DNA of 64,000 nt from Nitrospinaceae bacterium (GCA_965223665.1 OZ245011.1:3616001-3680000), one strand, 5' to 3'; counted from the first letter of the stretch, positions 31,256 through 55,119 are shown. The notes: a model not told the origin generated them from the letters alone. Made by a program: numbers and translations.

Positions 31256-31690
31256 TTACTGAGATTGATCCGTGGAGCCGAATCCACTGCCACCTCGAAC
31301 GGTGGTGTTAAGTTCTGTAACAGTCAAAAAGTTCACAGTCTCAATTTTCTGGATTAGGAGTTGGGCTATTCGATCCCCTTTTTGGATAACAAAATCCTCT
31401 TTGGAATGGTTAAAAAGTAAAACCTTAATTTCTCCTCGGTATCCGGAGTCTATGACACCGGCTCCGGTATCAATTCCTTTTTTTACTCCAAGTCCACTCC
31501 GGGGCCAAACCAGTCCTACATGGTTCTCAGGTAACGCTATTCGTATGCCTGTTGGAATTAGTTTTCTTTCACCTGCGAGGATAATTTGGTCAGTGGATGA
31601 CCTTAGATCAGCACCAGCATCACCTGGGTTGGCGTAGGAAGGTAGGTACTCACCTTGAACTGGACATTTTGACAACTGAGATTTATCCAT
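31256..31690 (-). CDS. dut: dUTP diphosphatase
   Basis: AGADL, PRSGL, GVIDSGYRGEI, GDRIAQL, RGGSGFGST. Confidence 0.95.
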   Translation of the reverse strand: MDKSQLSKCPVQGEYLPSYANPGDAGADLRSSTDQIILAGERKLIPTGIRIALPENHVGLVWPRSGLGVKKGIDTGAGVIDSGYRGEIKVLLFNHSKEDFVIQKGDRIAQLLIQKIETVNFLTVTELNTTVRGGSGFGSTDQSQ

Positions 31691-31828
31691 ACGCTCTTTA
31701 AATATAAAAGGCCTTGCTTATACTAACCGAGAGAGCAATAAGAAATTTGTCCTTGGCAAAATAAACTTGGATAAAAATCGAACGTGAGCTATAAATAGTA
31801 CAAGCAAGACCTTTGATAACGAAAGGAT

Positions 31829-32054
31829 GGCGGGTCACTTTTTGGTTTTCCAACCCGTGTTGCTGCAACAACCCGGGAAAAGAGCTTCCACTTAACGCCG
31901 CTTGGAATGAGCTGTTTCGCCGAATAAATACGGGGATTTCGGCCGGCGCTCAATACATTTGGGGATTTGGGAAGGGGCTTTAGTCGCACCCAGAAATCTT
32001 TAAACTCTCTGAGATACAACGTAAGAGCAGAAATCTCTTTCAAAGTAACCCGCC
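31829..32054 (-). ncRNA. putative structured RNA (unassigned)
   Basis: 13-bp terminal helix GGCGGGTTACTTT/AAAGTGACCCGCC enclosing several hairpins; G-U pairs favour the minus strand. Confidence 0.5.
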
Positions 32055-32162
32055 TATGGTGGCAGGTATTAGGGATTATAATATTTAGTTTCGGCATTTA
32101 TGGACTTCCGAAATTGACATATTTACCCTCATCTCCCTACCAATAAATCCTATCAATAGCAA

Positions 32163-32216
32163 ATCCATTATCTTGTGTTACTGGAAAATGATACCACTAT
32201 ATATTGTAGGTGTCAA
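32163..32216 (-). promoter_or_regulatory. sigma-70 promoter overlapped by tandem NrdR boxes
   Basis: TTGACA-N17-TATCAT on the minus strand; boxes ATCCATTATCTTGTGT (32163-32178) and CCACTATATATTGTAG (32194-32209), 31 bp apart. Confidence 0.75.
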
Positions 32217-32313
32217 TTATTTTATCTACAATTCATAATTTTGACGCTAATTCTAATAAAATCAAATAATTATGGAGAGTAGTAATTATGGGGTATCTAA
32301 TTTATGATTGGGA

Positions 32314-32359
32314 ATACAATATATAGGTAAAAACAAAACTGAGTCCCTATATATGGAGA
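32314..32359. promoter_or_regulatory. second pair of NrdR-like boxes
   Basis: ATACAATATATAGGTA and TCCCTATATATGGAGA, 30 bp apart, matching the CwATATATwG core. Confidence 0.45.
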
Positions 32360-32488
32360 TAAAAGGAGAACCCATAGAGAAATCAAAATATTTTGAAGAT
32401 CTTATGGTTTTTTCGGAAAAATGATATTTTTCTTAGAGAATCTCGATTTTAATTGGAGGTAACCTTAGAATATCCAGGTTAAATTGAT

Positions 32489-34249
32489 TTATGATTCTTC
32501 TTTTTCAAAACGGTCTAAACTGGCAGGAATTTCATCCAAAAATCTCTCTGCAATAATATAAATAACATCTGACCCCTGTATTTTTGCAAGATACTGAGGT
32601 TTCCCTTGAAATTGTTTTCCTACCTCAATTTGTCCTATTAGCTTTTCTTTATCAAACAAGGATAACGTAAGCTGACCTTCTCCTAACTCCAAATTCAAAT
32701 CTCTCGATTTGGGAGGAAATTGGTCCTGATATTCTAAATTGTTAATTGTCCAAAGAATATCTTTTCCTATAAATGGAGCAATAGGATCAATTTCTTTCGG
32801 TTTCTTTAAAGCCCAGTCCTTTTTATTTCTTACCAGCTCAAATGTTTTATTGGGATACTTTATCTGAATCCGTGTTACCTGGTTGGTGTCCAATGAGAAA
32901 AGGTTTTTATTTTGAAATTCATCTAAAGACCGAAAAATTTTTTTCTTGGCATCTTTTTCCAAAATAAAAACTGCATTGTCCACACTCCGAGATGCATAAT
33001 AATTATGTTTTTGAGAATCGGCATTTCCTAGAAAAAGAGATTGCCGCTTCCCTTTTTTATCAATAAGAGTTAACTCTTTTCTTGGAGTGTGCAACCCAAA
33101 ATTCTTTAATTCTTCTGCTTTAACGAATTCCTTGATGCGGGTTTCTTTTAAATCGAAAAGTAGGTTATTAACGGTTTCTGAGTCACCTTTTTTTTCTGTG
33201 GGATCAAAAAGTGTCCAGAGTTTTGGATCCTCATTATCTCTTTTTATTTGAATGGTATTTATTCCTTGCCTAATACGAATTTCAACCACCTCGTCCTCTT
33301 GAATATTTATTAGGGATTTATCAAAGTAAGTCACGGGTGGTTTAGATAATGCCTCAATAATTTCTTTATTAACGGTGAAAATATTTGCTGCATGTGTGGT
33401 TTGGGCGTAATAAGTATCTTCTTCATCCTTACCACCAATAATTAATTCCCAGGGTTGATCACTTTTCTCGGATTTTACTGAAAACTTTATTGTTGGAATT
33501 TTTAAGCCGAATGGAGTGATATCTTTTGGCTTTTCATCAACAAACTTTTTAACTCTACTCCGTTTCAAGGTATTGAGTAATTGTTCAATAGAATCTCCAT
33601 CACCTTTTCCAGACAATCCTTTCACTAAAGTCCAACTGTTGTTCTTTTTTTCAAATCTTTGAATTTCATTTTTGTATTTGATTTCGAAAGAAGTAACGTC
33701 TGGTGTCTGGTATTTAAAAATGGACCGGTCCCGAAGATCATTAACTGACTTGTCTAACGCTGATTTTTCCAGGTTTGCGAGCAAGACTCTTGGATTTTCG
33801 GAAAGCTTTACATAATATGAATGGCCAATTGGGCTTGCATCTCCAAGCTCCAGGGTCAAAGGTTTATTGGATTTTAATAATAGTTTGATTTTTAAATCAG
33901 GAGAACTTAGGCCATAGTTTGATAATTTATTAGCTTTCTCTTCTATTACTCTGGAAATTTCGCCGGATTCTAAAGTACCTAATAGTTGATCGATTTGCAT
34001 GGGATCAGCAATTAGTTCCAAAGGTTTTTTTATTTCCCAAAGAAATTCATTTACTTTTTTAACCTTGATAGTTAAATCGTTTTTAATGATTTCAATTCCT
34101 TCGATATCATCATGAGAAAAATTAATGACTTTTTTAGCGAGTATTTTTTCTTGGGTTTTTTTTTCCTCTTTTGGTTTTTCTACATAAAAGGTGTAGAAGG
34201 CTAGAGTGGCACAAACCAAAACCAGAACTATTGTTCCTTTAAATTTCAT
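32489..34249 (-). CDS. DUF4340 repeat protein
   Basis: N-terminal TM; repeated W.......D...V..LL..L / FGL..P modules; last gene of the Gld-like ABC operon. Confidence 0.8.
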   Translation of the reverse strand: MKFKGTIVLVLVCATLAFYTFYVEKPKEEKKTQEKILAKKVINFSHDDIEGIEIIKNDLTIKVKKVNEFLWEIKKPLELIADPMQIDQLLGTLESGEISRVIEEKANKLSNYGLSSPDLKIKLLLKSNKPLTLELGDASPIGHSYYVKLSENPRVLLANLEKSALDKSVNDLRDRSIFKYQTPDVTSFEIKYKNEIQRFEKKNNSWTLVKGLSGKGDGDSIEQLLNTLKRSRVKKFVDEKPKDITPFGLKIPTIKFSVKSEKSDQPWELIIGGKDEEDTYYAQTTHAANIFTVNKEIIEALSKPPVTYFDKSLINIQEDEVVEIRIRQGINTIQIKRDNEDPKLWTLFDPTEKKGDSETVNNLLFDLKETRIKEFVKAEELKNFGLHTPRKELTLIDKKGKRQSLFLGNADSQKHNYYASRSVDNAVFILEKDAKKKIFRSLDEFQNKNLFSLDTNQVTRIQIKYPNKTFELVRNKKDWALKKPKEIDPIAPFIGKDILWTINNLEYQDQFPPKSRDLNLELGEGQLTLSLFDKEKLIGQIEVGKQFQGKPQYLAKIQGSDVIYIIAERFLDEIPASLDRFEKEES

Positions 34250-35841
34250 AGAGAACGTCTTCTCCACCATACACTGACACCCATTAAAGTCACGGCCATT
34301 GGAATTAGAATAGTACCAACGACGAATGCAAGGTTGCCTTGGGTAGCGGTTAGGGCAAGGGGACTATTTTTTCGTTTGCGGGGACGGATAGAAATTAAAT
34401 TTTCTTCTTGCAAAAGCCAGGAAGCCGAATTTAGAAAAAAGTCACCGTTACCAGAAAAACTGAAATAATTATTACTTGCAAAGTCTGAGTCACCAATTAC
34501 TACCAGGTTTGCTTTTAATCCAGCTTTTACTGGTTCATTTTGGTTGGGTGGATGGCTTGATTGATTTGCAATTGAATTTGAGGATTGAGTGCCAGGTTCT
34601 GCTTTTTGCGCATTTAAATTTTTGGTGATTGCAACTGCTACGGAAACAGGGCCCTTAAGATCCACATTAGGATTGTAGCGTGCTTTACCTGAAGAAATAT
34701 CAGTTTCCGCCCAACTCTCCGGTCCCGAAAATAATACTTCACTGGATTCCAATCCTTCAGTAGTAATAGCTTTTACGGATCGAAGTAAAGGAAAGATAGT
34801 GGGTAATGAAAAATCCTTGGTAATTCCATGGGGGCTGTATTGACTAACCACTGGAGCTGCATAGTCACCACCATATAATTTTGACATGGGGTCGATAATC
34901 AAATCGTTTTGTACTTCTACTCCCCATTTTTCCAGAAACGCCGTCCATCCATTATCAACTTGAGGATCTGCAAGTATTAAAACTGAGCCGCCTCCGTTTA
35001 AATAGTGATCAATGGCTTCAAGCTCCAGTTTTTGTATGGGTTTAGTTGGGCCACTGATTACTAATAAATCTGCGTCCTTAGGTACTTCTCCAGTTTTTAA
35101 TAGAAGAAGAGTTTTTATTTGAAAATTATCTTTTTCCAGAGACTCTTTAACCTTAGAGTATCCATTCTTTTCTTTGTCATGTATATTTTTTTCACCATGC
35201 CCTTTAAGGAAGTAGATAACTTTTTGTTGATCCTGCGTAACTTTAAGAAGAGCATTAGTTACATTTTCTTCTGTAGCTTTTGTTACTTTTGTTTCTTGTT
35301 TGCCGCTTTCAAAAACTACAGTTCCATAAGTGGTTACTCCATATTGTTTAGTGATTGCAGGATTTTTATCAGGATCTACAAACTCTAATTTAATTTTCTC
35401 AGTAAAGTTTTTATACCCATCCATCAATCTTTGAAATTCGTTACGAGTCCCATCATCGGTTTGATAAAAAGCGGTAAGCTTGACCTCTCGTGCTAAATTA
35501 GAAACTACCTTTTGGGTTTGAGGAGCCAGCGTATAAAACTTAGTTTCGGTAAGATCAATTCGGTGTTTATGTTTTAAAAATTGAACATTAAGAAAAATCA
35601 AAATTCCTAAAACTGCAAAAATTATTATGGCAGAGTTGGTTCCATAAAGTGTAGTTCGTGATTTTAAGGAGCTTTTTACTTCTTTACGGTCCAAGTATAA
35701 AAAGAACAATCCATTGGCTAAAGCGATTCCTAATAATGTATAAGTCGCCAAAGTTAGTTGGGGAGCAATGAGATACAATAATAACCCGACAAAACCACAA
35801 GCAAGCGCAATCCAACCGGCATAAGGGGCAAATTGTTTCAT
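34246..35841 (-). CDS. GldG-like ABC transporter auxiliary component
   Basis: RIDLTE.K.YTL, FVDPDKNP, YFLKGHGE, VIGDSDF, N.DFFLN. Confidence 0.85.
   Translation of the reverse strand: MKQFAPYAGWIALACGFVGLLLYLIAPQLTLATYTLLGIALANGLFFLYLDRKEVKSSLKSRTTLYGTNSAIIIFAVLGILIFLNVQFLKHKHRIDLTETKFYTLAPQTQKVVSNLAREVKLTAFYQTDDGTRNEFQRLMDGYKNFTEKIKLEFVDPDKNPAITKQYGVTTYGTVVFESGKQETKVTKATEENVTNALLKVTQDQQKVIYFLKGHGEKNIHDKEKNGYSKVKESLEKDNFQIKTLLLLKTGEVPKDADLLVISGPTKPIQKLELEAIDHYLNGGGSVLILADPQVDNGWTAFLEKWGVEVQNDLIIDPMSKLYGGDYAAPVVSQYSPHGITKDFSLPTIFPLLRSVKAITTEGLESSEVLFSGPESWAETDISSGKARYNPNVDLKGPVSVAVAITKNLNAQKAEPGTQSSNSIANQSSHPPNQNEPVKAGLKANLVVIGDSDFASNNYFSFSGNGDFFLNSASWLLQEENLISIRPRKRKNSPLALTATQGNLAFVVGTILIPMAVTLMGVSVWWRRRSL

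Positions 35842-55046: not shown

Positions 55047-55119
<73 letters not shown>

Follow-up and report, generated by a model that had tools for sequence, protein, structure and literature searches.

The spacer upstream of dut in a Nitrospinaceae genome probably holds a gene for a structured non-coding RNA, one that belongs to an undescribed family, is restricted to the Nitrospinales, occurs once per genome and forms part of the predicted NrdR regulon. Its conserved core (Domain 1) is a 226-nt multi-helix RNA read from the minus strand, 32054-31829, of the window, i.e. the whole 64,000-nt stretch of DNA that was analysed. The RNA appears to act on its own and not merely as the leader of dut.

A strand-specific fold with a conserved core

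Folded as the minus strand, the core has an energy of -81.8 kcal/mol (z -4.23), and none of 200 shuffled sequences folds equally well. For the plus strand z is only -0.38, hence the fold is strand-specific. The element is also richer in G+C than the genome (49% versus 38.3%). These values bear out an earlier note on this DNA, made by eye, which had described a GC-rich island with a preference for the minus strand. The range proposed there holds for the core (31829-32054) but is too small for the element as a whole, to which a 5' leader of ∼125 nt and a second domain (Domain 2, 31814-31707) also belong. The parts of the leader and core are as follows.

32055..32181, minus strand: 5' leader, ∼125 nt, poorly conserved between families in the alignment
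32054-32042 with 31841-31829, minus strand: P1, the closing helix, GGCGGGTTACTTT = GGCGGGUUACUUU with AAAGTGACCCGCC = AAAGUGACCCGCC
32040-32026/31893-31879, minus strand: P2 and P2a, with AAAGAG/CTCTTT as P2
32020-31983, minus strand: P3 hairpin
31978-31950, minus strand: conserved single strand GCCCCUUCCCAAAUCCCCAAAUGUAUUGA
31949-31944 with 31900-31895, minus strand: P4, GCGCCG with CGGCGT, a pairing conserved across genera
31943-31939/31923-31919, minus strand: P4a, GCCGA/TCGGC
31906-31901, minus strand: UCCAAG single strand
31877-31854, minus strand: P5a, a CCCG..GCAAC..CGGG hairpin
31853-31842, minus strand: P5b

To obtain homologues, a 301-nt query was compared by BLAST with 41 related genomes, 32 of which gave matches; the genome of the window itself contains a single copy. 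An alignment of 29 copies (A1) yielded an RNAalifold consensus of 39 pairs and, from this, a covariance model (R1), which scores 198 bits on the window. When 42 sequences were fitted to R1 (alignment A3), a step that in itself favours the pairs of the model, standard pairs occupied 94.2% of the cells, compared to 39.0-45.9% with the partners slid by 1-3 columns. Changes on both sides were seen for 19 of the 39 pairs of A3, and none of 500 shuffles of this alignment matched any of the observed measures of covariation. Thus, the helices do covary among homologues, a check that the earlier note had proposed.

Conservation is distributed unevenly over the fold. P1, which was drawn correctly at the outset (32054-32042 with 31841-31829), occurs in every one of the 42 aligned homologues, and 99.8% of its cells are paired; the closing helix of Domain 1 measures 12-13 bp. 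Together with P4 (GCGCCG/CGGCGU) and P4a (GCCGA/UCGGC) it is nearly invariant, and covariation is heavy in P2 and P2a. Positions P3 and P5 are occupied by hairpins whose sequences are unrelated between genera (median energies of -15.6 and -7.75 kcal/mol, respectively), and P5 is absent from family f3. Of the inner helices first proposed from the window, AAAGAG/CTCTTT (P2), GCCGA/TCGGC (P4a) and CCCG..GCAAC..CGGG (P5a) are supported by comparison, whereas TGAGC/GCTCA and TTCCA/TGGAA can be drawn in the window and are lost in other genera. We therefore rejected the latter two as conserved helices, since other genera keep GCGCCG/CGGCGT in their place. Forcing this conserved P4 onto the fold of the window costs just 1 kcal/mol.

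The unpaired portions of the core are conserved as well. Its invariant single strands are GCCCCUUCCNAAAUCCCCAAAUGUAUUGA and UCCAAG, and its invariant unpaired C/U-rich stretches are CCCCUUCC, AAUCCCC and the AAUCYCC loop of P4a. The composition of these C/U-rich strands and of the P4a loop suggests that they may pair with G-rich partners or bind a protein. When the C-rich strands were compared by eye with the leaders of nrdJ, only generic anti-Shine-Dalgarno complementarity was found. C/U-rich unpaired stretches resembling anti-Shine-Dalgarno seeds recall the sRNAs of the RsaE/RoxS type, a likeness that serves as a lead only; the element described here differs from these in being four times larger, in having a complex junction fold and in showing no homology that we could find.

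One copy per genome in a single order

R1 was searched against 120 genomes of one class, which constitute the entire Nitrospinota set examined. Matches were obtained in 90 genomes, exactly one in each, and all 90 belong to one order, the Nitrospinales. With the genome of the window left out, the counts are 18/20 for family f1, 61/70 for f2, 5/6 for f3, 5/5 for f4 and 0/18 for the five other families, which represent other orders. Among genomes that are at least 90% complete, the RNA is present in 50 of 57.

For a wider survey, we used a degenerate pattern of the core, which recovers 41 of the 43 known copies checked. Scanned over 185,579 species, one genome each, the pattern matched at least 119 stretches, 80 of which were listed, and R1 confirmed 41 of the 80. 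These 41 come from records titled Nitrospina, Nitrospinaceae, Nitrospinales, Nitrospinia or Nitrospinota, with one exception, titled Nitrospirota, which is the same contig as genome G019. Among the matches listed, stretches from Streptomyces, planctomycetes and other organisms were not confirmed by R1, and the pattern had no match in viral contigs. Taken together, the R1 counts and the confirmed matches among those listed indicate that the family, as far as it has been traced, is specific to the Nitrospinales.

A promoter covered by paired NrdR boxes

Upstream of the leader lies a close match to a sigma-70-type promoter, overlapped by sequences that resemble NrdR boxes. These were scored against a consensus that was reportedly set out by Rodionov and Gelfand in 2005.

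32188..32216, minus strand: sigma-70-type promoter TTGACA-N17-TATCAT, 11/12 in the promoter scan, with TG before the -10 element
32194..32209, minus strand: NrdR box 1, CTACAATATATAGTGG, between -35 and -10, 13/16
32163..32178, minus strand: NrdR box 2, ACACAAGATAATGGAT, over the predicted start and 31 bp downstream of box 1, 12/16
32314..32329, minus strand: distal NrdR-like box, TACCTATATATTGTAT, ∼120 bp upstream of box 1, 12/16

Transcription is predicted to start near 32181. A box at about the distance of the distal one recurs in many, not all, of the homologous loci, and its role is uncertain.

Single boxes arise by chance in an AT-rich genome, and 28 sites in this one score at least 13/16 on this consensus. 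On a matrix built from the boxes of the homologues, box 1 is the top site of the genome, a ranking that is partly circular; the same scan returned one more intergenic candidate and several sites inside genes. In 42 of 43 loci, the RNA is preceded by a box of at least 12/16, and TTGACA and a -10 element surround box 1 in nearly all 43. A second box (at least 10/16) at an offset of 31 or 32 was counted 35 times over the 43 loci, compared to a maximum of 8 for any other offset from 20 to 44. The near-consensus promoter with tandem NrdR-like boxes that had been noticed in the window is therefore a feature of the family.

The genome also encodes the presumptive regulator and a target to compare with. 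An nrdR gene is present at C1:744431-744868 (TIGR00244, 187.8 bits versus a cut-off of 124.65), and the single ribonucleotide reductase (RNR) gene, nrdJ, is a class II-like frame of 1213 codons. The nrdJ promoter (G000:C1:2312190-2312330, locus L201) reads TTGACA-ACGCAATATGTAGTGC-TAATCT, with a second box 32 bp downstream. Here and in five other genomes, from four families, nrdJ promoters have the arrangement TTGACA-box-(-10) with a second box at +31/32, a layout nearly superimposable on that of the RNA's promoter. NrdR-repressed RNR promoters are alike in having two 16-bp palindromic boxes 31-32 bp apart that overlap the promoter, and they differ in that the product here is an RNA and no RNR. 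Paired boxes that overlap a promoter and are spaced by an integer number of helical turns constitute the layout of the NrdR regulon, and the two boxes here, 31 bp apart, conform to it. Given this layout, the conserved boxes and the presence of nrdR, the tie to deoxynucleotide homeostasis proposed in the earlier note gains weight. In E. coli and P. aeruginosa, according to a 2025 preprint, paired boxes occur only at RNR operons (bioRxiv 10.1101/2025.03.28.645925). A conserved target with paired boxes other than an RNR gene would be unusual.

Domain 2 and the approach to dut

Between the core and dut lie a linker and a second folded domain.

31815..31828, minus strand: pyrimidine-rich linker AUCCUUUCGUUAUC, a conserved CCUUUC-type sequence after P1
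31707..31814, minus strand: Domain 2, a 19-bp closing helix (31814-31796/31725-31707) around a hairpin
31761-31748, minus strand: loop of the Domain 2 hairpin, UUUUGCCAAGGACA
31709-31700, minus strand: U-rich tail UUUUAUAUUU after the closing helix of Domain 2, followed by the dut ribosome-binding site
31699-31694, minus strand: dut ribosome-binding site AAAGAG, with the AUG at 31690
31256..31699, minus strand: dut, dUTPase of 144 aa (PF00692, 128.5 bits)

The loop motif of Domain 2, G[CU]CA[AG][GU]G[AG]C, is found in 34 of 43 loci, and the domain is missing from the other 9. Its closing helix has 10-25 bp, differs in sequence from genus to genus and is followed in many cases by a U-rich tail. 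This combination of a long closing helix with a U-rich tail makes Domain 2 look like a branched terminator, and on these features we infer that it is either a branched terminator or an attenuator. The closing helix encloses ∼70-130 nt, i.e. no short hairpin, and a simple scan for intrinsic terminators found none in the window. In genus g6 (L021, L024, L025, L029 and L139), a classical hairpin-U7 terminator lies just after Domain 2, and ∼70 nt with a TATAAT-like sequence separate it from dut. In its 5' arm, this terminator uses bases that also belong to the 3' strand of the closing helix of Domain 2. Because these bases are shared, the two folds are mutually exclusive, a layout typical of attenuators and of riboswitch expression platforms.

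Selection on the RNA apart from dut

The RNA is followed by a co-oriented dut in 39 of 43 loci. The usual order is a DUF4340 gene, a spacer of 800-900 nt that holds the RNA, dut and a macro-domain gene. In the Nitrospinaceae, dut begins 10-40 nt past Domain 2, and the promoter scan of the window found no minus-strand promoter between the two. Families f2 and f4 have 110-400 nt between the RNA and dut, with TATAAT/TATAGT-like sequences.

On the far side of the spacer, 32489-35841 of the window (minus strand) holds the upstream ABC_transp_aux (GldG-like) and DUF4340 genes, a pair that adjoins the RNA in most of the order.

The four loci without dut downstream are those of all four species of genus g9. 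Here the RNA, its promoter and both boxes are flanked by a response-regulator-GGDEF gene on one side and a convergent ParB_N gene on the other, and no gene follows on the RNA's own strand. The g9 dut resides on a different contig, preceded by a spacer of 145 nt; inspection of this spacer by eye revealed neither the RNA nor a box. Among the g9 species, Domain 1 is 94.8-100% identical, compared to 74.5-80.3% for the DNA of the neighbouring gene and 66.8-73.1% for the upstream spacer. The rearrangement represents a single evolutionary event. That RNA and boxes have been kept in g9 in the absence of dut still shows selection on both apart from dut, and hence argues for an RNA gene within the predicted NrdR regulon that is not simply a dut leader. 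The earlier note had offered a non-coding RNA or a cis-regulatory leader; on the evidence from g9, the first is favoured over a leader of dut.

It is nonetheless conceivable, if unlikely in our estimation, that the element controls dut in cis, as a riboswitch or attenuator. Domain 1 would then be an aptamer for a metabolite of a nucleotide pathway; the role of expression platform, acting on transcription or translation, would fall to Domain 2, the terminator or the linker; and the g9 copies would be orphaned switches. Several observations are in keeping with such a device, beginning with the position directly upstream of a co-oriented dut in the 39 loci; this co-orientation, combined with the lack of room for a separate dut promoter in the Nitrospinaceae, fits a cis-acting leader too. 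The glmS ribozyme and the 2'-deoxyguanosine riboswitches are cis elements linked with a single gene or with RNR genes, and the RNA resembles them in its single copy, its fixed place upstream of one metabolic gene in most genomes (as for glmS) and its nucleotide-metabolism context. It differs in matching no model and in persisting in g9 without a downstream gene. The exclusive folds of Domain 2 and the terminator in g6 would suit an expression platform, as would the linker, which in the fold of the window can pair with the ribosome-binding site and AUG of dut, but beyond the window this pairing is weak, and neither feature is general across the loci. Finally, neither the RNA nor a canonical dut is present in five outgroup genomes from other orders of the phylum (G041, G042, G043, G046 and G108), a coincidence that amounts to one phyletic event. 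No relative of the window's Dut protein was found in these five, and the Pfam dUTPase model gave 20-24 bits in three of them, on frames of 187-225 codons.

Against a dut riboswitch, g9 keeps RNA, promoter and boxes (95-100%) while dut resides elsewhere without them, so that the RNA does not always occupy the 5' UTR of the gene it would regulate (dut in 39 of 43 loci, ParB_N in the four g9 loci). Moreover, the 9 loci without Domain 2 would lack that platform, the spacers of f2 and f4 leave space for promoter-like sequences before dut, and the RNA has no known ligand.

Comparison with known RNA families

At gathering thresholds, Rfam 15 found only a tRNA in the 64-kb window and nothing over the element. 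At E ≤ 10, the region 31600-32500 gave nothing credible, the best match being BsrG on the wrong strand with 20.6 bits (threshold 55), and 16 diverse homologous loci gave no match at E ≤ 1. The cobalamin riboswitch (RF00174) was matched neither in the window, including 31600-32500, nor in the 16 loci. The label 'unassigned' given to the RNA at first sight therefore survives a search of Rfam. The same can be said of the failure to recognize it by eye as RNase P, tmRNA, SRP or 6S RNA, as all four are located elsewhere in the genome, on contig C1 (RNase P RNA, 328 bits; tmRNA, 202 bits; 6S RNA, 89.7 bits; SRP RNA, 76.7 bits).

The tRNA of the window is encoded at 55047-55119 on the plus strand (71.7 bits).

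These results make it very improbable that we are dealing with a divergent member of a described family that the models missed, be it a cobalamin or other riboswitch, 6S, RNase P, tmRNA or SRP RNA, or one of the large 'ornate' RNAs. A general resemblance speaks for such a relationship, in that the element is a multi-helix RNA of ∼230 nt with a closing helix. Set against this are the lack of an Rfam match to the element in the gathering-threshold scan and in the E ≤ 10 scan, the lack of a match in the 16 homologues at E ≤ 1, and the presence of the four housekeeping RNAs at other places in the same genome. As a type, the RNA is reminiscent of the raiA-motif RNA, OLE, ROOL and GOLLD, which are clade-restricted, have elaborate folds, their own promoter and terminator and a fixed neighbour, and are of no known function. 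It shares with them the restriction to a clade, an elaborate fold of a few hundred nucleotides, a promoter of its own and the position beside a fixed neighbour gene. It is set apart by having no Rfam match, by its clade and fold and by a defined regulator. In the literature searched on Nitrospina, Nitrospinae and NrdR in connection with RNA regulation, no title describes the element.

The overlapping open reading frame

A reading frame runs across the RNA.

31789..32097, minus strand: 102-aa ORF, incidental, overlapping the RNA

We consider it exceedingly improbable that the conserved sequence codes for this 102-aa protein, with the RNA fold secondary. Three observations could be taken to favour coding. 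Of 43 homologues, 15 have a frame across the element that contains no stop, tblastn with the ORF detects translated similarity in many loci, and the distance from P1 to the core is divisible by 3 in 28 of 42 loci. However, the remaining 28 of the 43 homologues have stops in every frame. The P1-to-core distance takes 18 values and, within genus g6 alone, differs by single nucleotides (124, 125, 126 and 127), and the other two intervals show all three residue classes, so the frame is broken. Across nine species of genus g2, variable columns are spread over the three codon positions as 23/27/23, with no excess at third positions. Similarly, the share of synonymous changes is 18% in the frame of the ORF (141/787), compared to 19% (147/785) and 29% (244/828) in the other frames. 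The changes in helices are compensatory, and no Pfam family was found in the ORF. On the grounds of frame breaks, codon-position spread, synonymous share and the missing Pfam family, the coding interpretation was dropped, in agreement with the suspicion voiced from the start that the ORF may be incidental. We read the open frame as probably a by-product of composition and conserved sequence.

Traces in marine RNA libraries

Parts of one homologue, L139 (from a g6 genome, with the RNA at 945-1179 on the minus strand), were found in 11 runs of marine RNA libraries from eight studies. For four runs from three studies, we examined the cover of L139 by contigs; this locus comes from a family other than that of the window's organism. 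The contigs of the four runs cover Domain 1 of L139 and its flanks, 831-1293, with the reservation that contigs from such libraries carry no strand, level or true ends and that the libraries may include DNA. The listed contigs are distributed as follows.

Run X1: L139 831-1283
Run X2: L139 1043-1293, plus one contig at 580-835
Run X3: L139 1038-1283
Run X7: L139 946 to within the 1168-1211 bin

The contigs extend 104-114 nt upstream of P1. In three runs from two studies they end at 1283-1293, adjoining the predicted start near 1300, and we take this as a weak hint that the ends mark that start. The listed contigs cover neither the sequence ahead of the promoter nor the greater part of dut, save for the low-depth contig at 580-835; contig depths and gaps on L139 cannot rank the RNA relative to dut.

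One contig of run X7 joins an Illumina adapter to L139 946, a position just a single base away from the 3' end of P1. Release of Domain 1 as a processed RNA is a possible explanation for this junction, seen in a single contig.

The idea that conservation downstream of the promoter is not that of an RNA, and that the whole is an extended NrdR operator/promoter region of dut acting as DNA, owes its appeal to the paired boxes and strong promoter, the most recognizable features of the locus, yet it has next to no chance of being right given a conservation peak 130-350 nt downstream of the boxes, a strand-specific folding energy, compensatory base changes that only an RNA explains and the cover of a homologue by contigs from RNA libraries.

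A model for the RNA and its implications

As an RNA gene with its own regulation, the element may work in the following way. A dedicated sigma-70-type promoter would drive the RNA, with the two NrdR boxes, 31 bp apart, covering this promoter. When deoxynucleotides run low, NrdR would leave the DNA and the RNA would be made together with nrdJ, a prediction that follows from the shared arrangement of boxes. The transcript would comprise the variable leader of ∼125 nt, the 226-nt core and, in most lineages, the second domain. The core would not depend on dut and would act either in trans or on some partner that is not dut. In the Nitrospinaceae, dut itself would most likely be expressed by read-through of Domain 2, and such read-through would place dUTPase under the same control by NrdR.

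What the RNA does can be suggested only tentatively. One possibility, which we put forward with the balance tilted against it, is an RNA arm of deoxynucleotide homeostasis: the RNA would be co-repressed with RNR and would sense, buffer or relay nucleotide or replication status by binding a metabolite or sequestering a protein. If this were true, the NrdR regulon would have its first member with canonical paired boxes that is neither an RNR nor a protein, and ocean RNA libraries would contain, as a discrete species, an RNA of a globally important nitrite oxidiser. The element also challenges the idea that only RNR operons carry paired NrdR boxes.

Most of the nitrite oxidation in the ocean is the work of Nitrospina and its relatives. 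To our knowledge, almost nothing is known about their regulation at the level of RNA. With its conserved 226-nt fold and a transcriptional input that is defined, the element lends itself unusually well to testing for an orphan RNA. It is predicted to be induced upon depletion of deoxynucleotides, together with nrdJ; cultured strains exist, and the Nitrospina genus g4 carries the element.

A third strong NrdR-like box, CTACAATATATTGTGG, was encountered at G000:C1:3217769 and may point to a further NrdR target. It lies in the spacer between a gene for a 793-aa SMC/RecN-like protein and one for a 114-aa protein that, by eye, resembles the ArsC/Spx family.
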